A stretch of DNA of 64,000 nt, from positions 5,634-69,633 of IMG/VR virus record IMGVR_UViG_3300035670_000167; one strand, given 5' to 3'. A program made the position numbers and the translations under genes. Source of the stretch: a virus. Below the pieces are notes generated by a model. It worked only from the letters and a program-made list of their open reading frames with translations, made no database searches and was not told the DNA's origin. Every line of letters starts with the position of its first letter. Position 1 is the first letter of the stretch. Positions 28,122 through 57,242 of the stretch are shown piece by piece.

Positions 28122-31100
28122 TTATCCGTTAGTAAAATAAGTTGTATCAGGTCTGAAGTTTATTGTATAGTAGGCTCCATTTTGTCTGATTACGTTTCCT
28201 ACTCCTCTTATAATAGAACCTGCTGCTGTTGGTACGGTTGCACTAACATTACCCGCAGTTGTTCCTACATAAAGTGGATCACCAATTGTTGCTACACCAT
28301 CTATTAAGTTAGTAGTATATATACCATCAATTAATACTGAGATTTCGTTTCCAACTCCAGCAACTGTTCTTAATACTACCCCTAATATAAATTCAGTTGT
28401 AGAAAGTGCATCAGCATCTGTTCTAAACCATTGACCTGAGGCAGCCTGGTAATGTACTAATTGACCAACTGTTAATGCTTCTCCGGAGGTTTGGCTATGA
28501 AGTATTGTTCCTTGAACATAAACTGCAGCTTGATTTGGATCTAATATAGATGTATGTCCTGGATAAAGTTTAGCGGTAATTGTAGTACCTGAAAGAGCTG
28601 TATCACCTGCCCATAAATAATTTTCAGCATCAGACCATAAGACATTTTCTCCAGAAAATGATACACTACCATTTACATCTAATGTTTGTGTTGGGCCTGT
28701 AGTATTAACACCTAATCTAGTATTTGTAATATCAGCATATAAGAATGATACACTTTGTACTGTTGTTGTACTTGTAGTTCTTACTAAATAATCTGGTTGA
28801 TTGGTAAATACACCACCACTAATACCTGAGGTACCGTTGATTGATTGACCACTTGTTCCCGCTACACCACTTGTACCATTAGTTCCGTTTGCTCCTGATG
28901 TTCCATTAGAACCTGATGAACCTGAAGAACCTGAAAGCGCACTTACACCTGAATTACCTTTGTTTCCTGAAACACCATTTGTACCTGAAGAACCAGTTGT
29001 ACCTGAAGTTCCTGATGCTCCTGAGTTACCGTTGTTTCCTGAGTTTCCTGAACTACCATTTGAACCACTTGTACCTGAGTTACCTGAGTTACCTGAAACT
29101 CCGTTGTTTCCTGAGTTACCGTTTGAACCATTAGTTCCGCTTGAACCTGAGCTACGGCTTAATCCTGAAGTACCTGCGTTTCCTGAGTTACCAGAGTTAC
29201 CTGAAGTACCATTAGAACCTGATGAACCTGAAGTTCCTGATGAACCTGAAGTCCGACTTAAGCCAGAATTACCTGCGTTTCCTGAGTTACCTGAAGAACC
29301 TGTTGTTCCGGATGAACCTGAAGTTCCTGATGAACCTGAACTACGGCTTAATCCTGAAGTACCTGCGTTTCCTGAGTTACCAGAGTTACCTGAAGTACCA
29401 TTAGAACCTGATGAACCTGAAGTTCCTGATGAACCTGAAGTCCGACTTAAACCAGAATTACCTGCATTTCCTGAGTTACCTGAAGAACCTGTTGTTCCGC
29501 TTGAACCTGAGGTTCCTGATGAACCTGAGCTGCGGCTTAAACCAGAGTTACCTGCGTTACCTGAGTTACCGTTTGAACCTGTTGTTCCGCTTGAACCTGA
29601 TGTTCCTGATGAACCTGAAGTCCGACTTAAACCAGAGTTACCTGCGTTACCTGAGTTACCTGAAGAACCTGTTGTTCCGCTTGAACCTGAGGTTGCACTT
29701 AAACCAGAAGTACCTGAGTTACCTGAGTTGCCAGAGTTACCGTTTGAACCTGTTGTTCCGCTTGAACCTGAGCTGCGGCTTAATCCTGAAGTACCTGCGT
29801 TTCCTGAGTTACCGTTTGAACCATTAGTTCCGCTTGAACCCGATGTTCCTGAAGTCTGACTTAAGCCAGAATTACCTGCGTTTCCTGAGTTACCATTGGA
29901 ACCATTGGTTCCACTTGAACCTGAAGTTGCACTTAGACCAGAAGTACCTGCGTTACCTGAGTTACCTGCGTTACCTGAAGTACCATTAGATCCTGTAGTT
30001 CCGCTTGAACCTGAGCTGCGGCTTAATCCTGAAGTACCTGCATTTCCTGAAGTACCATTATTTCCGGAGGTACCATTTGAACCATTAGTTCCGCTTGAAC
30101 CTGAAGTCCGACTTAATCCTGAAGTACCCGCGTTTCCTGAGTTACCATTGGAACCATTGGTTCCACTTGAACCTGAGGTTGCACTTAAACCAGAGTTACC
30201 TGCGTTACCTGAGTTACCGTTTGAACCTGTTGTTCCGGATGAACCTGAGCTGCGGCTTAATCCTGAAGTACCTGCGTTTCCTGAAGTACCATTATTTCCG
30301 GAGGTACCATTTGAACCATTAGTTCCGCTTGAACCTGAAGTCCGACTTAATCCTGAAGTACCCGCGTTTCCTGAGTTACCTGAGGTACCGTTTGAACCTG
30401 TAGTTCCGCTTGTACCTGATAATCCTGAGTTGCCATTGTTTCCATTATTTCCAGAAGTACCATTTGAACCTGTAGTTCCGTTTGTACCTGAATTACCTGA
30501 ATTACCTGAGGTTCCGTTATTTCCAGAAGTACCATTTGAACCTGTAGTTCCTGATGAACCTGAGGTACGACTTAAACCGCTTGTTCCTGTGTTACCTGAG
30601 GTACCTGCAGTACCAGCTGAACCTGATGTACCTGAGTTAGCACTAGCACCACTTGTTCCAGCATTACCTGAGGTACCTGATGTACCAGCTGAACCTGATG
30701 TACCAGAAGTTGCACTAGCACCACTTGTTCCGGCATTTCCTGAATTACCTGAAGTACCGTTTGTACCAGTTGAACCTGAAGAACCTGAAGTTCTGCTTAA
30801 TCCTGAATTACTAGTATCACCAGATGAGCCATTAGTACCAGATGAACCACTTGTACCTGAGGTTTGACTTGGACCACTAGTACCAGCAACACCTGATGTA
30901 CCTACTGAACCTGTTGTACCTGATGAACCACTTGTGTTTGATAATCCGCTTGTTCCAGCATTACCTGAGTTTCCTGAAGTACCGTTTGAACCAGTTGTAC
31001 CTGAAGTTCCTGAGTTAGCACTAACACCACTCGTACCTGCATTACCTGTAGTACCTGCTGTACCTGTTGATCCTGAAGAACCAGAGGTAGCACTTAATCC

Positions 31101-34100
31101 ACTTGTTCCGGCATTGCCCGAATTACCATTAGTACCTGTTGAACCTGAAGAACCAGATGTTCTACTTAAACCAGAAGTACCATCATTACCTGAGGTACCA
31201 ACTGTACCTGAAGAACCGGATGAGCCTGAACTACGGCTTAATCCGCTTGTTCCAGCATTACCACTTGTTCCATTTGAACCAGTAGTTCCTGAAGAACCAC
31301 TTGTATTTGATGAACCACTAGTTCCAGCAGCTCCTGTAGTACCTGCTGTACCCGTTGAACCGGAAGTTCCTGAGTTAGCACTAACACCACTTGTACCGGC
31401 ATTTCCACTTGTTCCATTTGAACCTGTTGTACCTGATGATCCTGATGTATTACTTAATCCACTAGTACCTGCTACTCCTGCTGAACCGTTAGTACCAGTT
31501 GAACCTGAAGAACCAGAAGTATTTGAAGCACCTGAAGTACCTGCATTTCCTGAAGTACCGTTTGTACCTGTAGATCCTGAAGAGCCACTTGTACCAGATG
31601 AACCTGAAGTTCTACTTGAACCAGAAGTACCATCGTTTCCTGAAGTACCGTTTGTACCAGCTGAACCGCTTGAACCTGAAGTTCTACTTAATCCTGAAGT
31701 ACCGTCGTTACCTGAGGTACCTATTGAACCCGAAGATCCTGATGAACCTGAACTACGACTTAATCCACTTGTTCCAACGTTACCTGAGGTACCGTTTGTA
31801 CCAGTTGAACCACTTGTTCCTGAAGTAGCGCTAGCACCTGATGCACCTGCAGCACCTGAAGAACCTGAAGTACCAGTTGAACCTGAAGAACCACTTGTTC
31901 CTGAAGTAGCACTTGCTCCTGAAGCGCCTGCAGCTCCTGAAGAACCTGAAGTTCCTGTTGAACCTGAAGAACCGCTTGTATTTGATAATCCACTAGTTCC
32001 AGCTACACCTGAAGTACCATTTGTACCAGTAGATCCTGATGAACCTGAAGTATTACTTGCACCTGATGTTCCAGCATTACCACTAACTCCTACTGAACCT
32101 GATGTACCTGTAGAACCACTTGTTCCACTTGTTGCGCTAGCACCACTATTTCCAGCATTACCTGATGAACCATTTGAACCTGAACTTCCTGAAGTGCCTG
32201 ATAATTGACTTAATCCGTTTGTTCCAGCAGCACCTGTTGAACCATTTGAACCTGAACTTCCTGATGAACCAGAAACATTACTAATACCTGAAGTACCAGC
32301 CGCTCCTGATGAACCATTTGAACCGCTTGTACCTGCAGATCCTGATGTATTTGAATTACCTGAAGTACCTGCATCCCCTGTTGAACCATTAGTTCCTGAG
32401 GTACCACTTGAACCTGAGCTTCTACTTAATCCACTTGTTCCTAAATCTCCATCTCCGGAAGTACCGTTTGTACCTGATGTACCTGAAGATCCTGAACTGC
32501 GACTTAAACCTGAAGTTCCTATATTACCTGAGGTACCAACTGAACCTGAAGATCCACTTGTTCCTGAAATTTTACTTTGACCTGAATCTCCAGCTTCACC
32601 TGTTGAACCGTTTGTACCTGAAGAACCACTTGTGCCTGATGTATTACTTAATCCTGAAGTACCAGCATTACCTGTTGAACCATTAGTACCGCTTGTTCCG
32701 CTTGAACCTGAACTGCGACTTAAACCTGAAGTTCCTAAATCTCCATCTCCGGAAGTACCATTTGTACCACTTGTTCCACTAGAACCTGAAGTTCTACTTA
32801 AACCACTTGTACCTATATTTCCTGAAGTACCAACTGAACCTGAAGACCCAGATGTACCACTTGTATTACTTAATCCTGATTCACCAGCAACACCTGAAGA
32901 ACCTGTAGTTCCTGTTGAACCTGAAGAACCAGATGAACCTGAAGTTCTGCTTAAACCTGAGTTACCGTCAACTCCTGTTGAACCGTTTGTTCCAGAAGAA
33001 CCACTTGAACCAGAAGTTGTACTTAATCCACTTGTTCCAGCATTACCTGAGGTACCAACTGAACCACTTGTTCCTGAAGAACCTGAAGTAGCACTTTCAC
33101 CTGAAGTTCCAGCGTCTCCTGTTGTACCGTTTGTACCAGAAGTACCTGAAGAACCACTTGTATTAGATAATCCACTTGTTCCAGCTTCACCTGAAGAACC
33201 GTTTGAACCAGATGTGCCTGAGGAACCACTTGTGTTTGAAACACCTGAAGTTCCGGCATCTCCTGTAGAACCTACAGTTCCTGAAGAACCGCTTGTACCT
33301 GAAGTAGCACTTTCACCTGAAGTTCCAGCGTCTCCTGTTGTACCGTTTGTACCAGTTGAACCACTCGTACCTGAAGTAGCACTTTCACCTGAAGTTCCAG
33401 AGTCTCCTGTTGTACCGTTTGTACCAGAAGTACCTGAAGAACCAGACGTTTCACTATTTCCTGAAGTACCAGCATTACCACTTGTACCATTAGATCCAGT
33501 AGTTCCTGAGGAGCCACTTATGTTTGATAATCCGCTTGTTCCAGCATCTCCTGAAGAACCATTTGTACCTGTTGAACCAGAAGTACCAGATGTGTTACTT
33601 AAACCACTTGTTCCAGCATTACCACTAGAACCATTAGATCCTGAAGTGCCTGAGGAACCAGACGTTTCACTATTTCCTGAAGTACCCGAAGTGCCTGTTG
33701 AACCTGATTCTCCACTTGTTCCTGAAGTACCAGATGAACCTGATTCTCCACTTGTTCCTGAAGTACCTGAGGTTCCATTTTCACCAGAAGTACCTGATGT
33801 GCCTGTTGAACCACTAGTACTACTTACACCTGAAGTGCCTGTTGAACCATTATCACCACTTGTTCCACTTGTACCTGTTGTTCCGGATTCACCTGAAATA
33901 CCTGAAGTACCTGAGGTACCATCTTCACCACTTGTTCCTGAAGAACCAGTTGTTCCTGATTCACCTGAAATACCTGAAGTACCGAAAGTACCATTTTGAC
34001 CTGAAGTACCTGCTGAACCAGTTGAACCAGAATTTCCTGAGATACCTGAAGTACCTGTTGAGCCATTCTCACCTGAGGTACCTGAAGTACCTGTTGAACC

Positions 34101-36320
34101 ATTATCACCACTAGTACCATTTGTACCTGTTGAACCACTAGTACCACTTAAACCTGAAATACCAGATGTACCTTCTTCTCCTGAAGAACCATTTGAACCT
34201 GATGTACCTGAAGTACCAGAGATAGCACTTTCACCTGAAGTTCCAGCTTCACCTGAAGTACCAAATGTACCTGATGTTCCGCTTGAACCAGATGTTTCAC
34301 TATTTCCTGAAGTTCCAGCTTCACCTGAAGTACCAGATGAACCTGAAGTACCGGATAAACCTGAAGTTCCAGCTTCACCTGAAGTGCCTGAGTCGCCACT
34401 TGTTCCTGAAGAACCTGATGTGCTTGATCCACCAGAAGTACCAGCAGTACCAGTTGAACCACTTTGTCCTGAAATACCTGAAGTACCATTTGAACCACTT
34501 TCACCTGAAATACCTGATGAACCTGTAGAACCAGACTCACCTGAAATTCCTGAGGTACCTGTAGTGCCATCTTCACCAGAGGTACCACTTGTTCCTGTGG
34601 AACCAGAATTACCTGAAATTCCTGAAGTACCTATAGTACCGTTAGCTCCTGAACTACCTGAGGTGCCAGTTGAACCACTTACACCTGAGATACCTGAAGA
34701 ACCGATAGTACCGTCTTCACCAGATGTACCAGAAGTTCCTGTTGAACCGGATTCACTACTTATTCCTGAGGTACCTGTAGTACCATTTTCACCTGAAGTT
34801 CCATTACTTCCTGTAGTGCCACTAGTACCTGCTAAACCTGAAGTTCCTAAGGTGCCATTTTCACCTGAGGTTCCATTAGAACCAGTTGTACCAGATGTAC
34901 CACTTACACCTGATGTACCATTTATTCCATTTTCACCTGATATACCATTTGAACCATTTGTACCTGAAGTTCCTGATTCGCCTGAAATTCCTGAAGAACC
35001 GTTTTCTCCACTTATTCCATTAGAACCAGTTGTACCAGATGTACCACTTATACCTGATGTACCGTCTTCACCTGAAGTACCAGATGTACCATTTTCGCCT
35101 GAGGTGCCAGCTAAACCTGAACTACCTGAAGTACCGTCTTCACCTGAAGTTCCGGATGTTCCTGAAGTTCCTGAAGTTCCACTTGTTCCTGAACCTGGAA
35201 GATCACCAGGTCCTGTTCTACCTGAACTACCTATTGTACCACTTGTGCCACTTGTTCCTGAAGTACCAGATTCACCTGAGGTACTATTTAAACCTGAAGT
35301 ACCTGAAGTTCCGTCTTCACCACTAGTACCTGAAGTACCAGATTCACCACTAGTACCAGATAATCCTGAAGTACCGGATGTGCCATCTTCACCACTTGTT
35401 CCTGAAGTACCAGATTCACCTGAGGTACCATCTAAACCAGACGTACCGGATGTACCATTTTCACCAGAAGTACCATTTGTTCCTGTTTGACCTGAAGTTC
35501 CTGAAGAACCAGTTGAACCTGAAGTACCATTTATTCCTGAAGTACCTGAAGTACCTGTTAATCCACTTGTTCCGGCTAAACCTGAAGTACCTGAAGTACC
35601 GTCTTCGCCTGAGGTGCCATTTGTACCTATTTCACCACTAGTACCAGATAACCCTGAAGTACCAGATGTGCCATCTTCACCACTTGTTCCCGATGTACCA
35701 TTTTCTCCTGAAGTACCGGATGTACCATTTTCTCCTGAAGTACCGGATGTACCCTTTTCTCCTGAAGTACCGGATGTACCATTTTCGCCTGAAGTGCCAG
35801 CATCACCTGAAGTGCCAGAAGTACCATCTATTCCTGAAGTACCGGATGTACCAGTTTGACCTGAAGAACCAGTTAAACCTGAAGTACCAGAAGTACCACT
35901 TGCACCACTTGTTCCTGACTGTCCTGTGGTTCCTGAAGAACCAGCAAAACCACTTGTACCTGAAGTTGTATTTACATATCCTACAACACCTGTGGTTGGG
36001 TTATAAGTTACAACATAATTTATATCTTGAACAGGAAGTGTTTGAAGTATAATTGGTTGAGATGATCCTGAAATTACTAAAGAACCAGTAATAACAGCTG
36101 AACCTGAAAAAGGAAATCCTACTCCTGAACCAGAAACATATACTGTAACACCTGTAGTATCAAAAGTAGTTAGTTCAACTGAACCTGAAAAATTTAGGAA
36201 AGGTACACTAGCACTAACTAATGTACCATTTTGATAAATGTCAATTGTACCACTACCATCGGTAGAATTTACTTGGTACACACCAACGGGAACTTGATCT
36301 AAAAATCTTACTTGAGCCAT
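28122..36320 (-). CDS. Giant Gly-X-Ser/Thr collagen-like virion fibre protein (2732 aa)
   Basis: About 115-aa N-domain, about 2380 aa of G-x-S/T/N triplets, fibre-type [18 protein letters not shown], and a C-terminal decoration/fibre-like domain (GQLV, GDPLYVG..AG). Late motif at 36339-36347. Confidence 0.88.
28820..35970 (-). repeat. About 7.1-kb 9-nt-periodic coding repeat with nested larger duplications
   Basis: Continuous (CCTGAAGTA)-like units. Near-identical blocks at 29152/29341 (189 nt apart), 30007/30241 (234 nt) and 32440/32734 (294 nt). Confidence 0.95.
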
Positions 36321-37833: not shown

Positions 37834-39066
37834 TTATCCTATAAATATTGTCATTGGTACTTGGTTAATCTCAGCAACTCTTGCTACCGATTCTGCTGCT
37901 CTTCTTTCAAGTAATGCTTGACGTGAAGTTTGATCAAAATATTCTCTTAATCTTGTTATTAATGCTGTTTTTTCTGCTTCAGCTGATGTAACTAAAGAAT
38001 CTCCGTTTAATGTTACTTCAGCTCCTGGGATTGGAACAGAAGCATATTTATTTCTTACTAAACCTAACATTTCTTTAGCTTTTGCTAAAGTATATTCAAA
38101 AATCCAACTTCTACCTATTGAATTAATTTTAGAATAATTTGGATTTAAATATGGAGCTGTAGCTGTATCTGTAATTTTATTAGTACCATCAGCAAAGGCT
38201 ACATCTATTCTATCTTGTATTTTAATAAAATCAAATATTAAATAATGTCCATACCCTAAATCTCCGCCTCCGTCAAAATCATCTCCTGTTAAACCAGTTC
38301 CGGGGATTGGGAATACTGAAATAATATTATTAATGATATTAAAAGTATAATTTGATAAAGTTACTGTATTTTGCATTTCAATGGCTTGCAAGTTTTGAAT
38401 TGTAAAACTTGTAGGCATCATTAAATAATTTGCATATCCATAACCTAAACCATAAACACCTGCAGGGGGAACTCCTCCTAATCCACCTTGTCCGGCTAAT
38501 AAAGTTGGTGAATATAATTGATTAATTGCTGGTGGTGGTTGGTAAAATACATTTTTAATTTCAATTCCACCGGAGATTCCTAAATCTAAAGCCCATGTGG
38601 ATAAATCATAATCTTGTACTCCAGGAATAAGTTCTAATTGACCTTTAAACCAAGTTACATTACCACCTGCTCCGGCTTCTTCTCCATATTGTTGAGATAA
38701 TCTAACAATAGTAGAAAATGTAGGTGTAAATATAGAATTATTTACATCTATTAATGTAGATGCTCCTTCTAAAGATAAATAATTATCTCTTAATTGAAAA
38801 GCATATAATTCATTTCCGTATACTGTTACTGCTTCTTCAAAAGCAGCAAAAAAGTTAATTTGTTGCAATTCAACATTTTCAATAGGATAACCTAAATGTA
38901 AGGCACAAAAGTTAGATACTTTATTTGCATCTGTTTGGAATTGGGGATCGTTATCATAAAATCCAAACGGTGTTGGAGGAGGCCATTGTCCACTAACATA
39001 ATAGTCATTATATACTTGAGCAAATGAAGCTGAACCGGGCCAAATAGGGATTACAGTAGATGCCAT
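37834..39066 (-). CDS. Neck/adaptor protein (gp13-like)
   Basis: LGYPIENVEL, GVQDYDL, WIFEYTLAKAKEMLG..R.KY..PIPG..VTLNG. Confidence 0.85.
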   Translation of the reverse strand: MASTVIPIWPGSASFAQVYNDYYVSGQWPPPTPFGFYDNDPQFQTDANKVSNFCALHLGYPIENVELQQINFFAAFEEAVTVYGNELYAFQLRDNYLSLEGASTLIDVNNSIFTPTFSTIVRLSQQYGEEAGAGGNVTWFKGQLELIPGVQDYDLSTWALDLGISGGIEIKNVFYQPPPAINQLYSPTLLAGQGGLGGVPPAGVYGLGYGYANYLMMPTSFTIQNLQAIEMQNTVTLSNYTFNIINNIISVFPIPGTGLTGDDFDGGGDLGYGHYLIFDFIKIQDRIDVAFADGTNKITDTATAPYLNPNYSKINSIGRSWIFEYTLAKAKEMLGLVRNKYASVPIPGAEVTLNGDSLVTSAEAEKTALITRLREYFDQTSRQALLERRAAESVARVAEINQVPMTIFIG

Positions 39067-39141: not shown

Positions 39142-39495
39142 TTAAAATAAAGCAACCCATGCACCTCCTGAAGAGAAGAAAGGAATACCACTTGATGAAA
39201 CAGCAAATGAAGCTGGATATGTAGTAGCTGATGGGAGGGTACTTTGAGTAGTTAAAGTAATTAAAGAAGATCCTGTTAATACTATTGAACCTGTTATAAT
39301 AAAATCACCTATCAATACACTTGAACCTGTAATTGTTGAAGAACCAGATACAACATTACTTCCTATAGTAGTATTTGAGCCACTAATTATTTGTGAACCA
39401 GTTACTGAGTGAGAACCTGTAAAATGTTGGAAGTTAGCATCTAACTCTTGAATAGTTAATGCTGATCCTTTTGTTTGTCTATACGTTAATGCCAT
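39142..39495 (-). CDS. Small fibre/decoration-like structural protein
   Basis: N-terminal LTYRQTKGSALTIQELDANF (fibre-attachment-like) and 6-residue (T/S)GS repeats. Confidence 0.65.
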   Translation of the reverse strand: MALTYRQTKGSALTIQELDANFQHFTGSHSVTGSQIISGSNTTIGSNVVSGSSTITGSSVLIGDFIITGSIVLTGSSLITLTTQSTLPSATTYPASFAVSSSGIPFFSSGGAWVALF

Positions 39496-39515
39496 GGTTT
39501 ATTTTATTATAAATA

Positions 39516-40022
39516 TTATGAAGATGCTACAATGTATTCTAATTGAATAGAACCTGTATATGTAGTATCTGTATCTCCTGCTTTTGCTTTGATTTCACTA
39601 ATATAAACAAAATCTGAATAATATTGTTCATCTACATATCCTTCTACAACATAATCTCCCACCTGTGAGGCATTAAAATCATCATTACTTAACATAAGAG
39701 ATTTACCCGGATCTACTTTAAACACAACAGACTCATCATTTGTTTTAATAATGTATACACTAGCAAATTTATTACTTGTTGTTAAATTTGTAATTCTAAT
39801 ATATTTAACATCTGAGTTTACAAAGGATCCTGGAGTTTGTTCTGGTTCTGAGTTTGTAAAAGCTATAATACCTACTCCAGATCCACTAAAATCATATGGA
39901 ATTGTATCTATCCTACGAACAAATTGGTTAACAGAAGGTATAACAACAGTATTAACAGCCGTCTCAATATTATTATTGGGAAGTAAGATTTGTTCCTGTA
40001 TAGTGACAGTTAAATTTGACAT
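39516..40022 (-). CDS. Putative structural protein
   Basis: VKYIRITNL motif and own late motif at 40038. Confidence 0.65.
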   Translation of the reverse strand: MSNLTVTIQEQILLPNNNIETAVNTVVIPSVNQFVRRIDTIPYDFSGSGVGIIAFTNSEPEQTPGSFVNSDVKYIRITNLTTSNKFASVYIIKTNDESVVFKVDPGKSLMLSNDDFNASQVGDYVVEGYVDEQYYSDFVYISEIKAKAGDTDTTYTGSIQLEYIVASS

Positions 40023-40066
40023 GATTTATGTGTTTGCTATAAATATTACAAAAATATTTTTCTTCC

Positions 40067-40801
40067 TTATTTTTTAGCTCTTCCGCTTGTTCCTGCGGAA
40101 CCAGTTGTAATTCCTATTTCTGCAGCTTCTTCGTACATTTGTAACAGGTCATCTACGATAGGATCTCTATGATTTTGTTTAAGAGTAATACCTACCATAT
40201 TTTTTATTTTACGAGATGCTGTATATAGAAATCTAAAGCCTGAATCACGTTTGGCTTTTAAATCGACTTGATAATCATCACCACAAACAATCATTTTAGA
40301 ACGTAAACCAATGCGAGTAGCAATCATTTCCATTTGTTCATGAGTAACATTTTGTGCCTCATCTACAATAATACAAGAATCTAAGAATGTTCTACCTCGC
40401 ATAAACGCTAAAGGTACAATTTCTATTTTACCGTCATTAATAAGAGCTTCTACTTTTTCTTTATCATAAAGAGAATACATATTTTGATAAATTGGTTGTA
40501 CCCAAGGGTCCATTTTTTCTCTTAAGTCACCTGGTAAGAAACCAATTTCTTCTCTTGATACTGTTGGGCGAGTAATTATAATTTTCTCAAAATGTCTTCT
40601 TAATAGACCATCTAATGCAATTTGACAAGCAAGTAATGTTTTACCTGAACCTGCTCTACCTGCTAAAATAGTAAGTGTATTATTTAGTATTTCTTCCTTA
40701 GCAGCTTTTTGCTCTTCGTTTAACGGGATTTTAAATTTAATTGGATTTTTGATAATTCTTTTTTCTCTAAATACCTCATCGGTATGATGGTTTGATGCCA
40801 T
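40067..40801 (-). CDS. phoH: PhoH-family ATPase
   Basis: GRAGSGKT, IGFLPGDL.EK, PLAFMRGRTF, DEAQN, GD..Q.DL. Confidence 0.96.
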   Translation of the reverse strand: MASNHHTDEVFREKRIIKNPIKFKIPLNEEQKAAKEEILNNTLTILAGRAGSGKTLLACQIALDGLLRRHFEKIIITRPTVSREEIGFLPGDLREKMDPWVQPIYQNMYSLYDKEKVEALINDGKIEIVPLAFMRGRTFLDSCIIVDEAQNVTHEQMEMIATRIGLRSKMIVCGDDYQVDLKAKRDSGFRFLYTASRKIKNMVGITLKQNHRDPIVDDLLQMYEEAAEIGITTGSAGTSGRAKK

Positions 40802-41516
40802 TGTCTTTTAAATTAAGTTTTACTAACTTATCGAGACCTGCATTAACGTGCATAGCATCATCTAATACAAGCTCGAAATCAAATCTTTCATCCAGAGGTA
40901 GAACTAAGTCTACTTGGGAACCCCATCGGATTAAGCTAAATCTTTCATTTTGAGCTACTAAATCCATTTGGTGTTTAAAGGGTGCAATCACGTTTACATC
41001 CTCATCGGCTATTTGTATTAGATAGTATGTGTAATCTAGAGAAGGAACATACACTTGGTTAAACATTCGTTCGTTATACTTCAAATAATCCATATTGTTA
41101 GGATTGATTACCTTATTTAAGATATCCTTCTCAACCGCTAACATTGGTTTATTTGTAGATTCAATGGGTTCTAAGTGTCTATATTTAAGTATTCCACCAT
41201 AGGGTATGCGGTTTATGTGAACGTCATAAAATGACATAAATATACCGATAACCAATGAGGGTTTATTATAATCACTATCACCCATTACATCCTTTAAGGT
41301 ATAATTCATACCTTTAATTTCCACAACTGATTCATCAGGTTGGACTACTTTTTGATATAGAATTGTTCCATCCGCTGGGCTATAAAAATGCTCATAATCA
41401 ATATAGTTTGGGCGGAGTGGGTCTCTAAAAAAGAAAGTATTTGATAATTCTCCTACAGGAAGTTTTTGTAATTCTTTAACTTCACCGTTTAGCCAATCTT
41501 CTAGTATTTGAGCCAT
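40776..41516 (-). CDS. Phosphatidylserine decarboxylase-family pyruvoyl proenzyme (no membrane anchor)
   Basis: FFRDP.R, SPADG, IFMS..DVHINR.P, NER, QIA, ERF.LIRWGSQVDL (G|S autocleavage site). Confidence 0.88.
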   Translation of the reverse strand: MAQILEDWLNGEVKELQKLPVGELSNTFFFRDPLRPNYIDYEHFYSPADGTILYQKVVQPDESVVEIKGMNYTLKDVMGDSDYNKPSLVIGIFMSFYDVHINRIPYGGILKYRHLEPIESTNKPMLAVEKDILNKVINPNNMDYLKYNERMFNQVYVPSLDYTYYLIQIADEDVNVIAPFKHQMDLVAQNERFSLIRWGSQVDLVLPLDERFDFELVLDDAMHVNAGLDKLVKLNLKDNGIKPSYR

Positions 41517-42430
41517 TACAGTAAAGTTTTGTTATGATCAACTCTATTCAAATGCATCATCATACAAGATAACATAGCACCTGATTTCATATATTCTGAT
41601 AAGTTGAATATAACAGGTTCCATACCTGCATCAGAACAAATTTTTTCTAATGATGCAATTTTATGTTTTTCACCTTCATAATATTCATGAGATTTTTTCA
41701 TTTCAGAAATATTAGAAGCGCATAAAACCATATTACCCATACGTACTGAATTGGTCATTCCTCCTAAAGCGTCTTCGACATCTACATCTATAATTTCAGT
41801 ATATTTTTCTAATAGTTTAATTTCATTTTCGTCATATAGTTCAGTACAAATTAATGTTTGATCACCATTTAGTGGAAAAATTGAACAATCTAAATGATAC
41901 AAATATTCATCAGTCATAGCAACTTTAATAATATTCATATCAAAATTTTTCTCCATCCACTCGTATGTTTTAATATTTGAACGAATACCATAACCACCTA
42001 TATAAACATTGTCATACAAATATTTAATATCAGCTTCACCTTCCCATTTATAAGGAGAAATATGAGTTTTGTAACCTATTTGGTTAAAAAATTTTTCACC
42101 AACTAATTCTTCACCTTTTCTAGGATCAGAGGTAAAATTAGATAATAAAATGTGATTTTCATTTTTAATGTGAGGTAATTGTAAACCTAAATTAGCTACA
42201 TAAACTTGATCTTGAAAATTACCTTCTGCGGGGAGCAAATAAGTTAAAGTTTGACCAGATACAAAATTGTATAGGTCCATAAATTGTTTATAAGCTTTAG
42301 GTCTGTTAATAGCTAAATCCTCATCTGTAAGTTCTTGCATCCAAATATTATTGGGATCGGATGTAGATAAGGTAAAGGGAAAGTTCATTACAAAACTTTG
42401 GATAGGCAACTGACTTGGGGTTTCTTTCAT
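41516..42430 (-). CDS. Amidinotransferase-fold enzyme, ArgZ/AgrE arginine-dihydrolase-like
   Basis: N.WM, DQVYVAN, RKGEE, EGEAD, GYGIRS, YHLD, LSEYMKSGAMLSC (catalytic Cys). Start set at ATG 42430. Confidence 0.88.
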   Translation of the reverse strand: MKETPSQLPIQSFVMNFPFTLSTSDPNNIWMQELTDEDLAINRPKAYKQFMDLYNFVSGQTLTYLLPAEGNFQDQVYVANLGLQLPHIKNENHILLSNFTSDPRKGEELVGEKFFNQIGYKTHISPYKWEGEADIKYLYDNVYIGGYGIRSNIKTYEWMEKNFDMNIIKVAMTDEYLYHLDCSIFPLNGDQTLICTELYDENEIKLLEKYTEIIDVDVEDALGGMTNSVRMGNMVLCASNISEMKKSHEYYEGEKHKIASLEKICSDAGMEPVIFNLSEYMKSGAMLSCMMMHLNRVDHNKTLL

Positions 42431-42490
42431 TTTTAAAACATTAGTTAAACTTATTATTCTACTATACATATTAGGTAGATACCTATAAGT

Positions 42491-42517
42491 AAAAAAGGCC
42501 TAGAAAACTCTAGGCCT
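42491..42517 (-). terminator. Intrinsic terminator
   Basis: AGGCCTAGA/TCTAGGCCT stem plus U run. Confidence 0.8.
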
Positions 42518-42539
42518 CTCTTTAAAGTATTTTTGAATT

Positions 42540-43178
42540 TTAATAAGTCTTATTTAATGTAAAAATATCACTATAAATATTATTACCATCATTAGTACTA
42601 CCCCATTGAGCAGTTATATCAAGTGTATTAGAGATAGTAGTATTAAATGTTGTATTATTTACAGTATTAAAAGCAAAGCCTTCAATAGTTCCATTACTGG
42701 TTTTTGTATAGTGAAATGCTCCTAATGAAACAATAGATGCTACTCCAGCTGCTCCAATTTGTCTGATGGTGAAATCTATATTTAAAGAAAATATATCATC
42801 TGTAATGTTTGTAATAGCTTGAGTGCCACTATCTAAAAGGATTAGGCTTCCTGCTTTTACTTTAATTCGTATAGTCTGATTATTAGCGGCATTTAAAATT
42901 CCTCCCATTATTGCTCTAAAACTATCTCCAACTTGAAATCCGTTTGCAGGAACACTTAAGGTACCTACTCCACTATCTATTAAAGATAGTTCAGAAGTAG
43001 TACCTGTTATAGGAGTACTATCTGCTGTTTGAGAAAATAAACCATAGTTGTTTCCTGGGATATAATTAATTGAGGTAAGTGTAGTATGTTTTGTTATACC
43101 ATCCTGAACAATGGCAAATAGTTCAGCTCCTGTTAAGGCATTAGCTGTAGGTAATTGGGAAATAGGTAAATTAGGCAT
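42540..43178 (-). CDS. Putative head fibre/decoration protein
   Basis: N-terminal PISQLP.A..LTG.E...IVQ.G.T motif typical of phage fibre proteins. Thr/Ser-rich beta domain. Confidence 0.6.
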   Translation of the reverse strand: MPNLPISQLPTANALTGAELFAIVQDGITKHTTLTSINYIPGNNYGLFSQTADSTPITGTTSELSLIDSGVGTLSVPANGFQVGDSFRAIMGGILNAANNQTIRIKVKAGSLILLDSGTQAITNITDDIFSLNIDFTIRQIGAAGVASIVSLGAFHYTKTSNGTIEGFAFNTVNNTTFNTTISNTLDITAQWGSTNDGNNIYSDIFTLNKTY

Positions 43179-43182
43179 AATG

Positions 43183-43458
43183 TTATACTGTTACATAAAT
43201 AAAAGATCCATCTTCTTGTAAGATAGAATAATAATCTAAGTATTCATCGCTATTAATGTAAGATTCTTCTTGAGCTAAAAAACCAACAATATTAGAATGA
43301 GGTGCTTTATTTTGAGTACTTATCCAATTTTGTCTTGCTTCACTTAATTGAAACAAATATTGGTTATAATAATTAACTTGTTCTTGAAGAGGTAATTGAT
43401 AAATATGCGACAATTGAGTAAATTGAGGCCAAGTTATTTCTTCAAAAATATTAAACAT
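43183..43458 (-). CDS. Small virion-associated protein
   Basis: Ends in ILQEDGSFIYV. N-terminus shares a motif with the DUF285 protein. Variant late motif ATATGTATA upstream. Confidence 0.65.
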   Translation of the reverse strand: MFNIFEEITWPQFTQLSHIYQLPLQEQVNYYNQYLFQLSEARQNWISTQNKAPHSNIVGFLAQEESYINSDEYLDYYSILQEDGSFIYVTV

Positions 43459-43481
43459 AAAGATTATTTATTATACATATG

Positions 43482-43508
43482 AAAAAAAGCCCCGCTTTCG
43501 CGGGGCTT
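43482..43508 (-). terminator. Intrinsic terminator after major capsid gene
   Basis: AAGCCCCGC-GAAA-GCGGGGCTT followed by a U run. Confidence 0.92.
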
Positions 43509-43540
43509 CCTTTCGAAAATTAATCCTAAGTTACTTCAGA

Positions 43541-45313
43541 TTAGATGGTGTTTAAACCATTGATGTAAATCTTACCGTAGAATTCAGGACGTAACATCTT
43601 CTTAGCGTAACGAGTCAAGAGACCTTTACGTGGAGTAAATGTATCTGGATCGTACACTAGAGGAGTCATAATTAATGGAATGTATGGAGCGAATACAGCA
43701 CCTGTTTCCAAGAACTGAGAACCTCTATAACCCATAAGGATTAAGTTTTCAGTCATGTAAGGGTTTTTGTAAACTTTGTAACGACCATTAACTGAACCAA
43801 CTTTCTGTACACCGAAAGCGTATTCCATTTGATCAGCTTCACCGTTATTAGTAGAAGCAAATCCTGGGATTGACTCAAGGATAGTAGCGATTGTTGGAGA
43901 AGTTACTAAGAAGTTAGCACCTCCACGTAAAGTCAACTGGTGGATTTTGTTAGATACTTTTTGGATTTTAGTACCTAATGTTTGGAACCACTGACCTTGT
44001 GTGTTGTAGAACGCTTGTGTTGTTGCAGCAGCAGCAAATGTATCAGATGCTGGGTTGTAAACTGTGTTGTTTACAGCTGACCAATATTCAGTAGCAGCAG
44101 CAGCATCTTCAATCAACATATCTAAGATTTCAAGGTCAATTTCCATTGAAATGTACTCAGACATGATGTTTGTTAATTCAGCTTCAGCATCGATGTTTTG
44201 GTAAGCAGCTAAATCTTGTGCAAATTCAGGTGTCCATACTGCCTTCAATTTCTTGGTTTTAGCAGTGATGGCTTGAGATTGCATTCTTACGTTAATCTCA
44301 GGGATAACGATGTCAGTAGCTGACGCAGCGTTAGGAACTGCAAAAGCACCTTCAGCTTCGAAATCACCACGACCTGATTGGTTACCACCGATAGCAGATG
44401 TTTGGTTGTTACCTGAAGTTACGTTAATACCATCTTGGTTACCTGATTTTTCGTAGAATACAGTTACTGCTGAACCTGAGTTAGGGATACTAGCAAAGTT
44501 AGATGAACCAGTAAAGAAGAAAGCAATTGTACCAGCTGTGTAGTTGTAATTTGTAAAAGCAGGTAATAAAGTAGTTGCATTAAACAATGAACCTGTAGTT
44601 AATACAAAACCACGTGTTGCGTCTTGATCAAATGAAGGAATTGTTGAAGAACTAATCGTAAATTTGTAAATTTGACCAGCAGCTACAGAAGCTGAATAAG
44701 TAGAATCGAAATTTAATTCAGCCCAAGAAGCAGATACGATTGAACCTGTACCTGTTGTTGCATTTGGTGCAACACCTGTTAAAGATGAAGTTAAATTTGC
44801 AGATGCTGTAAATTGGTTAGTTGCGTAAGTGAAACGACCCTCAGGACCACCATATAAACCACCTTCAGCAGCTGGAGTAGAGAATGGGAATTGAGAAGCT
44901 GTGTTTCTGTTACCATATAAAGATGAACCAGCAGTGAAAGGTGTCTTATTATTACCATATTGGAAATCTAAGAAGAACACAAGACCTGAAGGCATGTTCA
45001 TTGGTTGAACTGAAACGAATTCTTTAGCTACGATAGTACCGAATACTTTACGTACTAAAGGAAGAGCAATACCAGCCCAGTTCTCACCTTGTCCACCTGA
45101 AGTGAATGATGAGTTTGAAGAGATAGTATTGGTTTCAGTTACTAATTGTTTAGCTTGGTTTTCTAACAAGATAGACATGTTATTTTTATCAAGCTCGGTA
45201 AGACCTTCAAGAAGACCGGTTTTGGTCCACTTTCCAGCCAATCTTGCAGCGTCGCTTTGAAGTGACTTCCATGAGCCAGCTGCGCTTTCGAGTAATTGTT
45301 GTACTTGTGACAT
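43541..45313 (-). CDS. Major capsid protein (T4 gp23-like)
   Basis: LLENQ, LPLVR, VQPM..PSGLVF, AKTKKLKAVWTPEFAQDL, EIDLEI, APYIPL, F.PRKGLLTRY. Confidence 0.97.
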   Translation of the reverse strand: MSQVQQLLESAAGSWKSLQSDAARLAGKWTKTGLLEGLTELDKNNMSILLENQAKQLVTETNTISSNSSFTSGGQGENWAGIALPLVRKVFGTIVAKEFVSVQPMNMPSGLVFFLDFQYGNNKTPFTAGSSLYGNRNTASQFPFSTPAAEGGLYGGPEGRFTYATNQFTASANLTSSLTGVAPNATTGTGSIVSASWAELNFDSTYSASVAAGQIYKFTISSSTIPSFDQDATRGFVLTTGSLFNATTLLPAFTNYNYTAGTIAFFFTGSSNFASIPNSGSAVTVFYEKSGNQDGINVTSGNNQTSAIGGNQSGRGDFEAEGAFAVPNAASATDIVIPEINVRMQSQAITAKTKKLKAVWTPEFAQDLAAYQNIDAEAELTNIMSEYISMEIDLEILDMLIEDAAAATEYWSAVNNTVYNPASDTFAAAATTQAFYNTQGQWFQTLGTKIQKVSNKIHQLTLRGGANFLVTSPTIATILESIPGFASTNNGEADQMEYAFGVQKVGSVNGRYKVYKNPYMTENLILMGYRGSQFLETGAVFAPYIPLIMTPLVYDPDTFTPRKGLLTRYAKKMLRPEFYGKIYINGLNTI

Positions 45314-54700: not shown

Positions 54701-55231
54701 TTACAAAGAAAGGGCAGATTTCACTTGTGCAATACGTTCTTCAGTAGAACCACTAATAATTGTATAATTTTTAAATTTATATTTATATCGTTTAATTATA
54801 TTCTGGATTATAAAATCAATTAATTCACGATATTCTAGATCAGTTTCACGAACACCATTGTCTTCCATATCAACTCCTTCAGGAGAAACATAAAAAATAT
54901 AATCATATTCAGATAATAAACGTGCCGCTAATGTTTGAAAATCATCGGCTTCATGATAATCAATTGATTTAGCTGCTTTAGTAAATGCCATAACATCAAT
55001 AATAGTACGGTCTGTAATAATATTTTCGCACATTAATTCACTAGCTCGCTCAGCCAAAAATACAATTTGACCTTTAATTGTTGAATCTGTGTTTAATGGG
55101 ATACCTAACTCCATTAAATACTTTGAGCGTTCAGTTCTAAATTGATAATCTTTAAATTCAGGTAATTCCTTCAACGCATTTACAAGCGTTGTTTTACCTA
55201 CTGACATTGTTCCGCAAAAACCTATTTTCAT
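54701..55231 (-). CDS. P-loop nucleotide kinase-like protein (AAA_28/NadR-type)
   Basis: GTMSVGKTTL, ITDRT..D, YDYIFY, EDNGVR. Confidence 0.8.
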   Translation of the reverse strand: MKIGFCGTMSVGKTTLVNALKELPEFKDYQFRTERSKYLMELGIPLNTDSTIKGQIVFLAERASELMCENIITDRTIIDVMAFTKAAKSIDYHEADDFQTLAARLLSEYDYIFYVSPEGVDMEDNGVRETDLEYRELIDFIIQNIIKRYKYKFKNYTIISGSTEERIAQVKSALSL

Positions 55232-55611
55232 CCTTGTGAATCTCCTTTTTTAACTCGATAACTATCTTCTTCAAAATGTTTTGTTGATACTTCAAAAATT
55301 GTAGCTTCATCGGTAAGTGCCATTAATTGATGAGGTTGACCACGTTCTAAATCTACAACATCTCCTTCTTTAAGCCACACTACTTTTGTTTCTGCTGTTT
55401 CAGTATTAATCCATCTATATTCAAATTCTCCTTTAGCTACATACCATGATTCTTCTTTAATCAAATGATAATGCATTGAAAATTTTTTACCTTTTTCAAA
55501 TACAAGGAGTTTACCACAATAAGCATCATGATTTACAATCCAAAGTTCATGACCCCATGCTTTTTCATATCTATCTCCCTTGCGGGGAATTGGTTCATAT
55601 TTGTGTCCCAT
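55228..55611 (-). CDS. Cupin, sugar-isomerase-like
   Basis: KAWGHE.W, SMHYH..K.ESWYV..G, PHQL, EVST.H...DSYR. Confidence 0.8.
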   Translation of the reverse strand: MGHKYEPIPRKGDRYEKAWGHELWIVNHDAYCGKLLVFEKGKKFSMHYHLIKEESWYVAKGEFEYRWINTETAETKVVWLKEGDVVDLERGQPHQLMALTDEATIFEVSTKHFEEDSYRVKKGDSQG

Positions 55612-55874: not shown

Positions 55875-57242
55875 TTAAAATAAATCTCCTGTTCCTTGTT
55901 CGTAAAGATACAAATCATTTTTATGTTCTCCAAGTATAGATTCACAAACATAAATTGCTTGTGCTCCTGATACTGTAATACCTCGTGCTGATAAAGCATC
56001 ACCTACAAAGTGTACATTTGCATAATCAGCTAATGCTAAATTACTATAATCTACTTTAACTTCAGGTGATAGATATTTTACTTCAGGAATATAAATACCC
56101 CAATCGTCTTGTAATGTTGGGAATACTTTTTTCATGTCTTGAATAAAATCCATAACATATTTAAAGTAACCTTCCATAGCAGGTTCAACAACATGAGCTA
56201 ATGTATCTAAACTAATTTGAGTTGCTGTTACACCATTACCTTCAGATGTAGTTGATGGTTGACGAGATGGACTATAATATAAACCAGTACCATTTGCTTG
56301 TACTTTATTTACTACATCACGTGACCATTTAAACGGATCTTCAATACCATTAATTTCCATTAAGATACCGAAATTAGTCATATTATTTCTATATGCTTCG
56401 TCTTTCTTAGCATGTCCATTATATGAATGATCACCATATGTTTCCTCTACAGCAACATAAGCAGCATTATTATTTGTACAGAATGAACGTAATGAAACTC
56501 CTTCATCTTCAAATTTTCTATATAACTTAAAGTCATATGAAATATCGATTAGTTTTTGAAAGTGTTTTTGTGGTGCTTCAAATCGAACTCCAATTTGTAC
56601 TGATTTGGGTTCATCTGGGAGTTCGTATTGGTGGGCTAGCTCTTGAGCAAAATCAATGCCTGATTTACCTACTGCAAATATAAGTTCATCATATATTAAA
56701 GATTTAATTTTTCCTAGTTTAACAGGTAAAGAAGAATAACCTAATGAATTTTTATTAAAATTAACATCAGTTACTTTAGTTTCCCAAATAAACTTTACAC
56801 CTTTTTCAACTAAATAATCATACCAATTTTTAGCAATTTCAGATAGATAATCTGTACCTACGTGCCATACTGGGAATAAGCGTAAACCAAAATAGGGTTT
56901 GATAAATTCAGGTTCTGCTTCAGGATTTGAACATTGTACTTCTTCTGGTTTAGGGTGGAAACGTTTGAAATTGGTAATGACTTGATCCATCAATTCCATT
57001 GCTTTTTCCTCACCACAATATTTTGATAGTTGACCTCCAATTGCTGTGTGATAAGTCAATTTACCATCAGACCAACCTCCAGCACCTAAGAAACCTGTCA
57101 TTACTTCTTCAGGTTTACGTTGGTATGGATCTTTACCCATATCAATTACAGTGATCATTTCACCAGGATAACCGTTATCAACAAGTTTTGTTGCTGCATT
57201 TACACCTGCTACTCCTGCTCCTACAATTACTATTTTTTTCAT
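55875..57242 (-). CDS. FAD-dependent oxidoreductase (COG2509-like)
   Basis: IVGAGVAG Rossmann motif, GAGGWSDGKL, IGVRFE, RSFCTN, NGH, PEVKY, FVGD...RGI. Confidence 0.88.
   Translation of the reverse strand: MKKIVIVGAGVAGVNAATKLVDNGYPGEMITVIDMGKDPYQRKPEEVMTGFLGAGGWSDGKLTYHTAIGGQLSKYCGEEKAMELMDQVITNFKRFHPKPEEVQCSNPEAEPEFIKPYFGLRLFPVWHVGTDYLSEIAKNWYDYLVEKGVKFIWETKVTDVNFNKNSLGYSSLPVKLGKIKSLIYDELIFAVGKSGIDFAQELAHQYELPDEPKSVQIGVRFEAPQKHFQKLIDISYDFKLYRKFEDEGVSLRSFCTNNNAAYVAVEETYGDHSYNGHAKKDEAYRNNMTNFGILMEINGIEDPFKWSRDVVNKVQANGTGLYYSPSRQPSTTSEGNGVTATQISLDTLAHVVEPAMEGYFKYVMDFIQDMKKVFPTLQDDWGIYIPEVKYLSPEVKVDYSNLALADYANVHFVGDALSARGITVSGAQAIYVCESILGEHKNDLYLYEQGTGDLF

Follow-up and report, generated by a model that had tools for sequence, protein, structure and literature searches.

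A gene pair for a pentein enzyme and a soluble pyruvoyl decarboxylase, shared by T4-like phages and bacteria, with a putative role in arginine-derived amine synthesis

We analysed a 64-kb window of viral DNA (64,000 nt, positions 5,634–69,633 of IMG/VR record IMGVR_UViG_3300035670_000167, a 69.6-kb contig with a CheckV completeness of 43 per cent). An earlier note, made from the sequence alone, had singled out three overlapping genes in it: an ArgZ-like arginine dihydrolase (gene 1), a soluble pyruvoyl decarboxylase of the phosphatidylserine decarboxylase (PSD) family (gene 2), and PhoH (gene 3). Genes 1 and 2 recur together in other phages and in bacteria, and we propose that they form a conserved two-enzyme module that would make a small diamine from L-arginine, with putrescine the likeliest product, a reading for which we find the evidence evenly balanced. 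That the module makes an arginine-derived amine of any kind is probable; the order in which ornithine is made first and putrescine second is offered tentatively.

From the observations below we infer the following substrates, products, step order, timing, and purpose. Gene 1 would act as a hydrolase on the guanidino group of L-arginine, with L-ornithine, CO2, and 2 NH3 as products. The gene 2 product would cleave itself at Gly199|Ser200, which would create its pyruvoyl cofactor, and would then decarboxylate ornithine to putrescine. In the phage, the pair would be made during head building and DNA packaging, and the diamine may serve as a polycation for DNA condensation, with release of ammonia, independently of the host pathway. 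In bacteria, the amine would probably leave the cell through MATE or ATP-binding cassette (ABC) exporters.

The gene pair in phages

The two genes stay together among the relatives of this phage. In the best 80 of 183 IMG/VR matches, where gene 1 identity is 70–89 per cent, a gene 2 homologue comes after gene 1 in seventy-eight loci, and the contigs of the other two end first. The same 4-nt stop/start overlap is present in sixty-nine of the eighty loci, and gp23, the gene for the major capsid protein, lies upstream in seventy-seven. Median identity across these loci is 84 per cent for gene 1, 82 per cent for gene 2, and 75 per cent for gp23. A second viral scan, made from a distant query, returned mostly the same T4-like family, with only one clearly different phage (the 93-kb contig L164), so the diversity of IMG/VR phages is under-sampled here.

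Among GenBank phages, gene 1 matched forty-eight records (forty Campylobacter, six Bacteroides, one Ralstonia, and one Xanthomonas) and gene 2 matched forty-five (thirty-nine Campylobacter and six Bacteroides); the Ralstonia and Xanthomonas records match gene 1 and not gene 2. The Campylobacter phage records listed with the pair are all 124–135 kb, which is Fletchervirus size, and none listed is of Firehammervirus size. Bacteroides phage DAC19 carries the two genes adjacent and in the same order, without annotation. Campylobacter phage NCTC12673 has both genes about 42 kb apart; its gene 1 is annotated as an amidinotransferase and sits between the gp41 helicase and gp45 clamp genes. In L164 the pair is split by a 176-aa open reading frame (ORF; L164:5997-10789) and lies among ligase and helicase genes, followed by a 366-aa gene of unknown function, a dCTP-deaminase-like gene, and an IMPDH/GMP-reductase-like gene. 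Because the pair is placed otherwise in these other phages, its position in the head module is a trait of the present phage family and not of the pair.

We also searched five relatives that are 92–100 per cent complete for further polyamine genes. DHS/SpeY, arginase/agmatinase, spermidine synthase, and AdoMetDC were each found in none of the five, and the phage would therefore either use the product unchanged or leave its further conversion to host enzymes. In RNA libraries of four studies, short contigs cover portions of genes 1, 2, and 3 with 85–99 per cent identity (for example, gene 2 over 158 nt with two differences and over 267 nt with four, and gene 1 over 174 nt with four); parts of the stretch upstream of about position 42520 are uncovered in three of the four runs. 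We take these contigs as only a weak hint of expression, since the libraries may hold DNA and the contigs show neither strand nor level.

The pair in bacteria

Scanning one genome per species gave 194 loci with a gene 1 relative, of which the best eighty were taken (one of them, L083, is a phage-type contig). This search was run with an 11-sequence gene 1 alignment; the 51-sequence alignment used elsewhere has no sufficiently conserved stretch. A PSD-like gene stands directly beside the gene 1 relative in sixty-nine of the eighty loci, in sixty-seven of them upstream and on the same strand. The gene 1 relatives are 46–52 per cent identical to the phage protein and the PSD-like proteins 38–55 per cent. 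The remaining eleven loci lack a full PSD-like copy, although a fragment is present in one of these and the contig of another breaks off just upstream. The taxa include Actinomycetes (Saccharothrix, Amycolatopsis, Allokutzneria, Streptomyces), Verrucomicrobiales, Gemmatimonadota, Acidobacteria, Campylobacterota, Gammaproteobacteria, Latescibacterota, cyanobacteria, and Ca. Glomeribacter, among others. Co-occurrence in three phage lineages and in sixty-nine of the eighty genome loci strongly supports a functional pairing of genes 1 and 2. The earlier note had proposed this pairing and had named a neighbourhood survey as its test beforehand, with a failure of the two genes to co-occur elsewhere counting against it; the survey bears the pairing out.

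Most bacterial copies are also tied to an exporter, of a kind that would suit cations. A MATE-family gene lies next to the pair in forty-seven loci and an MsbA-like ABC gene in twenty-one, never both together, for a total of 68/80. Given this arrangement, the amine is probably secreted in bacteria. Several other neighbours point to polyamines by homology. These are a PotD-like binding protein in Verrucomicrobia (2e-49), an enzyme of the glutamine synthetase (GS) fold in Sulfitobacter (best match type III glutamine synthetase at 3e-75, with gamma-glutamylputrescine synthetase at 4.7e-57), and divergent agmatine-deiminase-like genes in cyanobacterial and some actinomycete cassettes. The Glomeribacter cassette has a CNNM/CorC-type protein beside it, LanM-like, GNAT, or carbamoyltransferase genes occur close to some actinomycete loci, and one locus (L084) is located among polysaccharide genes.

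In a different account the pair is no polyamine route: a very widespread, undescribed system of decarboxylase, pentein enzyme, and exporter makes a secreted, arginine-derived cationic metabolite in some ten phyla, and phages have captured it for a nucleic-acid purpose (covalent amine modification, or support of the replacement of deoxyguanosine by deoxyinosine in Fletcherviruses). We consider this improbable. A related proposal is that the product is attached covalently to phage DNA (as in a putrescinyl-type hypermodification of bases) or to virion proteins. This would explain why the pair belongs to the head module in this phage but to replication modules in others: it is flanked by capsid and neck genes in the window, lies between helicase and clamp genes in NCTC12673, and stands next to dCTP-deaminase-like and IMPDH/GMP-reductase-like genes in L164. 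It would also suit the confinement of the pair, among Campylobacter phages, to records of 124–135 kb, the size of Fletcherviruses, in which PMC13091555 describes deoxyguanosine (dG) of the DNA as fully replaced by deoxyinosine (dI). However, deoxyinosine carries no arginine-derived group, the sixty-nine bacterial loci tie the pair to exporters and not to DNA or virion genes, and no amine-attaching transferase was found beside the pair in the phage loci; of the present phage, the contig covers only part of the genome. We therefore rate covalent modification as very improbable. The earlier note had raised modification of lipid, DNA, or virion protein as its second option, and this is not supported: bacterial copies of the cassette adjoin exporters, and other phages carry the pair away from their head modules.

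Gene 1 is related to the dihydrolase domain of ArgZ and AgrE

Returning to the proposed arginine-to-putrescine module, we examined the likely chemistry of its first enzyme. The gene 1 protein has no Pfam match even at E ≤ 10 and falls in phrog_12759, a PHROGs family of unknown function. Its best curated models are those for arginine dihydrolase and its neighbours, all missed by a wide margin: NCBIfam NF052232 (Arg_dihydro) at 1.3e-22 and 80.4 bits against a cut-off of 450, the bifunctional ArgZ model at 77.6 bits against 1025, and NF045659 (DDAH) at 8.4e-21 and 74.4 bits against 300. Because these equivalog cut-offs are missed, we class gene 1 as a related family and not as ArgZ itself.

Searched as a single sequence against solved structures, gene 1 found ArgZ and AgrE only (1e-14). 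A profile of fifty-one family members matched AgrE at 1.5e-44 and ArgZ at 6.4e-43 in the Protein Data Bank (PDB), with an alignment that spans ArgZ residues 28–291 and includes C264; DDAH structures followed at 1.9e-8 to 4e-4, and the amidinotransferase SxtG at 3.5e-3 over sixty-two positions. The AlphaFold2 model of gene 1 is of high confidence (predicted local distance difference test, pLDDT, 96.7). All of its top ten Foldseek matches are ArgZ or AgrE, with template-modelling (TM) scores of 0.80–0.81 on the query and up to 0.90 on the target, a root-mean-square deviation of 2.2, and 21–23 per cent identity. DDAH, AstB, amidinotransferases, and agmatine deiminase come well behind; Campylobacter jejuni agmatine iminohydrolase (AIH) is only at rank 46, and PAD_porph gave no match to gene 1 in the Pfam scans. 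By profile and predicted fold, then, gene 1 encodes a free-standing protein whose family is the sister of the ArgZ/AgrE dihydrolase domain, and the ArgZ-like call of the earlier note stands in that form.

The motifs that had been listed for this protein (N.WM, D.V..AN, R.GEE, EG..D, GYG.RS, YHLD, and a C-terminal Cys) are all present and mostly conserved. Across the fifty-one sequences, N28 is kept in 49, D74 in 46, N80 in 42, R104 in 49, R150 in 48, H179 in 46, D181 in 47, and the predicted catalytic residue C289 in 46. Arg104 and Arg150 align with arginines of ArgZ. In DDAH-type enzymes two such arginines bind the α-carboxylate of the substrate, a group that agmatine does not have. N80 aligns with the position mutated in the N71S entry of ArgZ (6juz), a mutant that traps an intermediate according to the title of that PDB entry; the family has Asn here in forty-two of fifty-one sequences and Ser in six.

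An assignment to DDAH was considered and rejected. JGI names gene 1 homologues DDAH, and some of them carry a precomputed PF19420 match. Nevertheless, the DDAH cut-off is missed, the window protein itself has no Pfam match, and the profile reaches DDAH structures only at the values given above. A DDAH family search of the window's genome retrieved gene 1 alone.

A further possibility is that gene 1 encodes an amidinotransferase, which would transfer the amidino group from arginine to the amine that the decarboxylase produces; bacteria would export the guanidino product as a signal, toxin, or osmolyte, and the phage would use it otherwise. The GenBank annotation in Campylobacter phages says as much, the fold is shared (SxtG, AGAT, and HsvA appear in the Foldseek list, where amidinotransferases take ranks 26–49 with TM scores of 0.66–0.71), and the exporters at 68/80 bacterial loci would fit a secreted secondary metabolite; the LanM-like, GNAT, and carbamoyltransferase genes near some actinomycete loci also speak for it. 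Against this, SxtG is the only amidinotransferase matched by the profile, marginally so when compared with about 1e-44 for AgrE and ArgZ, and forty-two of the fifty-one family sequences retain Asn at the place of ArgZ N71. Furthermore, the phages have no exporter, and a net loss of arginine is of no evident use to a lytic phage. We judge an amidinotransferase improbable, if less so than covalent modification.

Two further observations on gene 1 relatives concern domain structure. Four cluster representatives (P0298, P0318, P0369, and P0385) are interrupted by LAGLIDADG/intein-type inserts, and one (P0256, from a single 5.5-kb contig) is a pentein enzyme with a C-terminal inorganic-pyrophosphatase-like (InPase) domain.

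Gene 2 is a soluble member of the PSD family

The gene 2 protein matches PF02666 at 3.8e-25 and 89.2 bits (cut-off 22) over residues 27–226, while fifteen NCBIfam PSD equivalog models all score it under their cut-offs (at best 71.5 bits against 183). D49 (in PADG), D98-x-H100, and G199-S200 are invariant in thirty-three phage and bacterial members, and in the profile these motifs align with PADG and D-x-H of Escherichia coli PSD. The E. coli enzyme uses D90/D142-H144/S254, with a G253-S254 cleavage site in an LGST consensus (PMC7952604). In the thirty-three members the site reads [WYFM]-G-S-Q, and the Thr of that consensus is always exchanged for Gln.

PMC7952604 attributes the membrane binding of E. 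coli PSD to three amphipathic helices at its N-terminus, all of them lost on deletion of the first forty-five residues. The profile alignment to this protein starts only at its residue 66. The highest 19-residue Kyte–Doolittle mean in gene 2 is 0.95, so no transmembrane segment is predicted, and the isoelectric point is 4.85. The PSD family, the intact G|S site, and the lack of a membrane anchor were thus correctly read in the earlier note. The gene 2 model has a pLDDT of 71.5 and shows two short N-terminal helices. Foldseek found nothing in the PDB at E ≤ 0.001 with this model (a weak match to E. coli PSD came at 3.7e-3), and VIA-align gave Z scores of 7.4 for E. coli PSD, 6.0 for Ao-ADC1 (9JER), and 6.0 for PsiD. 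The last two have no sequence match to the gene 2 family profile at E ≤ 1.

Action of this fold on free amino acids has precedent in these two enzymes: PMC12904898 describes Ao-ADC1 of Aspergillus oryzae as a PSD-family pyruvoyl arginine decarboxylase acting on the free amino acid, and PsiD is a tryptophan decarboxylase (PDB title, 8X4Q). A lipid role is an alternative, with gene 2 as a true phosphatidylserine or serine-lipid enzyme, gene 1 modifying a lipid or surface head group, and the host envelope being remodelled. PF02666 membership, E. coli PSD as the best structural match within the PSD family, and the JGI name 'phosphatidylserine decarboxylase' given to gene 2 homologues would all agree with it, as would the locus amid polysaccharide genes and the resemblance of the ABC partner to MsbA-type exporters. 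When we searched five bacterial genomes with PF02666, the cassette copy was the sole match in two. In the other three, however, a canonical PSD is encoded elsewhere (145–213 bits) in addition to the cassette copy (84–99 bits). The absence of a transmembrane segment, an N-terminus shorter than that of E. coli PSD, the invariant GSQ in place of LGST, and the wide miss of every PSD equivalog cut-off also speak against a lipid substrate, and soluble amino-acid decarboxylase folds replace gene 2 in other cassettes (see below). A lipid enzyme is, in our view, hardly credible.

In one Pseudomonas sp. locus (L112:4872-5678) the PSD-like gene is broken by an internal TAA, and the pentein and MATE genes look intact.

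Other decarboxylases beside the pentein enzyme

Three cyanobacterial loci without a PSD-like gene (L136, L147, and L158) have a pyridoxal phosphate (PLP) decarboxylase of the Orn/Arg/DAP fold next to the pentein gene; a transporter and a divergent agmatine-deiminase-like gene accompany them. We also looked for fusions among 150 listed representatives of gene 1 clusters. In P0314, from one 4.3-kb Logan contig, the pentein enzyme is preceded by a fused AdoMet_dc (SpeD) domain (3.5e-8, 34 bits, cut-off 25), and the N-terminus of P0326 resembles that of P0314 (E 3.5e-9). In phages, bacteria, and archaea, SpeD homologues have been proven to be pyruvoyl enzymes that decarboxylate ornithine or arginine (PMC9992855, PMC10407285), and an arginine decarboxylase is known in the alanine-racemase fold (PMC12283126). 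The active-site motifs of the pentein enzyme are the same with PSD-like, PLP-fold, and SpeD-like partners; only P0314 lacks Arg150, where it has Phe. The pentein enzyme is the constant element of these cassettes and the decarboxylase the variable one, drawn from three unrelated folds that each include basic-amino-acid decarboxylases.

The same observations bear on the order of the two steps. In the main rival to our proposal, the PSD-fold enzyme would decarboxylate arginine to agmatine, and the pentein enzyme would turn this into N-carbamoylputrescine or directly into putrescine. The sole characterised PSD-fold decarboxylase of a basic amino acid is an arginine decarboxylase (PMC12904898; Z 6.0 to the gene 2 model), and only for arginine is a decarboxylase known in each of the three partner folds, PSD, SpeD (PMC10407285), and alanine-racemase (PMC12283126). 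The divergent agmatine-deiminase-like genes in cyanobacterial and some actinomycete cassettes and the Phe at the Arg150 position of P0314 would also suit this order. On the other hand, both ArgZ-aligned arginines are kept in nearly all of the fifty-one sequences, and the family is far nearer to the free-arginine enzymes ArgZ and AgrE than to agmatine deiminases, as the low rank of AIH and the lack of a PAD_porph match indicate. We regard the reverse order as unlikely. The route from arginine through ornithine to putrescine, as the earlier note had it, accordingly survives as the best reading of the homology evidence, with indirect support from the PLP-fold replacement, the SpeD-like fusions, and the PotD-like and gamma-glutamylputrescine-synthetase-like neighbours; ornithine is its tentative intermediate, and agmatine the alternative.

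Several points weigh against a putrescine module of this kind. We know of no enzyme activity for the gene 1 or the gene 2 family, and to our knowledge no PSD-fold ornithine decarboxylase has been described. Both proteins lie far under every curated equivalog cut-off. The closest characterised case, Ao-ADC1, acts on arginine and thereby favours the agmatine order. The gene 2 model is of middling quality, and its PSD-family Z scores of 6.0–7.4 rank under that of a generic EIIA-Glc fold (Z 9.4). In two of the five bacterial genomes, the cassette copy is the only PF02666 match.

The comparative evidence has weak spots as well. The eighty genome loci, as the best of 194, are not a random sample, and the exporters at sixty-eight of them hint that the product is secreted, in which case it could be something other than a housekeeping polyamine. 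Two singleton-type clusters, both derived from short contigs, underlie the SpeD-like fusions; their DNA was not recovered, and P0314 had no match among viral contigs and no confirmed one among metagenome contigs. On the phage side, nothing else in the five near-complete relatives appears by homology to mark a polyamine pathway, the RNA-library contigs cannot prove transcription, and the contig holds only 43 per cent of the genome.

The earlier note did not know the pairing as a described pathway, and our literature searches, whose coverage excluded subscription papers, found no paper on it either. The main texts of PMC9992855, PMC10407285, PMC13625781, and PMC12283126 contain neither 'dihydrolase' nor 'phosphatidylserine'.

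Cassette layout and the surrounding window

The ORFs and the sequence agree with the layout given in the earlier note (Table 1). Genes 1 and 2 are joined by a TAATG stop/start junction at 41514–41518, genes 2 and 3 overlap by 26 nt (40776–40801), and the cassette lies between gp23 and a head-tail-adaptor-like gene, preceded by two small unassigned ORFs. A longer reading of gene 1 from the ATG at 42469 was rejected; we prefer the start at 42430 because the upstream ATG falls inside a conserved motif and most homologues are 304 aa.

Table 1. Features of the window, by position (all coordinates refer to the 64,000-nt stretch).
Feature	Position	Strand	Details
Gene 1, pentein enzyme	41516-42430	-	304 aa; 317 aa if read from ATG 42469
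Predicted catalytic Cys289	41564-41566	-	in gene 1
Gene 2, PSD-family proenzyme	40776-41516	-	246 aa; start overlaps gene 1 stop
Self-cleavage site G199|S200	40917-40922	-	in gene 2
Gene 3, PhoH-like	40067-40801	-	244 aa
Terminator-like hairpin	42491-42522	-	14-bp stem, 4-nt loop, then U-run
Variant motif TATGTATA	42463-42470	-	upstream of gene 1; variant of TATTTATA
Consensus motif TATTTATA	40038-40045	-	precedes next gene (39516-40022); downstream cassette edge
TATAAATA, examples	1008, 20624, 21202, 22991, 36339, 39080, 39508, 40038, 50054, 51996	+	
gp23 major capsid protein	43541-45313		PF07068, 1.1e-75
Head-tail-adaptor-like ORF	37834-39066		phrog_211
Collagen-like tail-fibre ORF	28122-36320	-	2732 aa
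Glycosyltransferase-like ORF	23284-24480	-	one of two (GT9 heptosyltransferase-like; GT1/GT4-like)
Glycosyltransferase-like ORF	24452-25411	-	the other of the two
Small cupin	55228-55611	-	phrog 'cysteine dioxygenase'
FAD/NAD-oxidoreductase-like	55875-57242	-	
phrog_3704 family protein	58222-58881	-	'ferredoxin'

The terminator and variant late motif that had been noticed upstream of gene 1 are both present, and both are kept in thirteen relatives. The region around the hairpin (42475–42545, minus strand) folds at -21.6 kcal/mol with a z score of -4.27, and none of 200 shuffled sequences was equally stable. A simple terminator scan of 39400–43600 returned no sites and so did not include this hairpin. 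In the thirteen relatives a hairpin stands at the equivalent place with different stem sequences. This terminator-like element would close the upstream 212-aa gene and insulate the cassette. The variant TATGTATA aligns with ATAT[G/T]TATAG in the same relatives, about 25–40 nt before the ATG.

The consensus form of this motif is over-represented. TATAAATA occurs twenty-eight times in the window against 15.1 expected, a count reached in none of 100 shuffles, and 22/28 copies are on the plus strand, where they read TATTTATA on the coding strand. Most of the plus-strand copies sit 5–30 nt upstream of ORF starts, about sixteen of them minus-strand starts. TATTTATA is thus a candidate phage promoter motif, possibly a late one; on the coding strand it runs in the opposite sense to the T4 late motif TATAAATA. 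With its own terminator, a late-type motif, and translational coupling, the pair would be expressed along with head assembly and packaging.

Gene 3, for a PhoH-like ATPase, matches PF02562 at 4.6e-64 and 216.1 bits (cut-off 27) over residues 26–224, with a P-loop, and falls in phrog_170. It follows the pair in seventy-three of the eighty related viral loci. No PhoH match was found in the eighty genome loci, in the DAC19 locus, or in L164, so we rejected PhoH as a pathway member; it is no more than a syntenic neighbour of the pair in this phage family, and its inclusion as part of a three-gene unit in the earlier note is not upheld.

The window has about 30 per cent G+C, and almost every gene is on the minus strand. 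Judged by its genes, the source is an uncultured T4-like myovirus: a T4-like set is recognisable with Pfam and PHROGs (terminase, portal, prohead protease, gp23, tail sheath and tube, and baseplate parts), as are ribonucleotide reductase, a DnaB-like helicase, and UvsX. The portal, terminase, and prohead protease genes are located farther upstream. The phage-type contig L083 mentioned above is 15.6 kb long, was binned with a Flavobacteriales metagenome-assembled genome, and carries gp23, gene 1 (80 per cent), and gene 2 (85 per cent); it gives a weak hint that Flavobacteriales are the host group of this phage family.

Some other genes of the window deserve a brief record. One 2732-aa ORF has numerous collagen-like tail-fibre matches, and its presence accounts for an island of 41–46 per cent G+C in this 30 per cent G+C phage. 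Two glycosyltransferase-like ORFs lie within the tail module, flanked by the sheath gene and large fibre genes. Downstream of the terminase gene are a small cupin gene, an FAD/NAD-oxidoreductase-like gene, and a phrog_3704 gene, which are possible auxiliary metabolic genes.

Implications

What is new here is the combination of enzymes; the synthesis of polyamine-type amines by virus- or bacterium-encoded enzymes is of a known kind. If the proposal is correct, an ArgZ-type dihydrolase and a repurposed PSD fold would together provide one more convergent way to make putrescine from arginine, and arginine degradation with release of ammonia would become a new entry point to the polyamine metabolism that viruses encode. 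The route would be present in very abundant marine T4-like phages, gut Bacteroides phages, and biocontrol Campylobacter phages, and, tied to exporters, in many bacterial phyla. In the protein collection the related clusters at 90 per cent identity number 1239 for gene 1 and 1247 for gene 2; hundreds of database names of the kind 'DDAH', 'amidinotransferase', and 'phosphatidylserine decarboxylase' would need correction. Three unrelated decarboxylase folds beside one pentein enzyme make a neat case of non-orthologous displacement. For polyamine biochemists, the two genes would be a system open to direct test.

Comparison with known systems

The nearest relatives of gene 1 are the N-terminal domains of ArgZ (Synechocystis Sll1336) and AgrE (Anabaena Alr4995; PDB 6JUY-6JV1 and 6LRF-6LRH). 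They share with it the pentein fold, the Cys/His/Asp residues, both arginines, and Asn where ArgZ has N71. Unlike them, gene 1 has no C-terminal ornithine-cyclodeaminase-like domain and has a decarboxylase partner instead; as in AgrE, the ornithine that gene 1 may make would pass to a second enzyme.

Gene 2 shares PF02666, the self-processing residues, and structural similarity (Z 7.4) with E. coli Psd (6L06/7CNW). It differs in having no N-terminal membrane-binding helices and no hydrophobic segment, in having GSQ for LGST, in being acidic, and in being partnered with a pentein enzyme. Ao-ADC1 and PsiD belong to the same PF02666-type pyruvoyl family and use a free amino acid and not a lipid, but they are fungal proteins of 350–480 aa with a large N-terminal region, and neither is known with a pentein partner. 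Finally, the SpeD-derived viral decarboxylases described in PMC9992855 and PMC10407285 follow the same logic, a virus-borne pyruvoyl route to putrescine or agmatine, with a protein fold that differs from that of gene 2.

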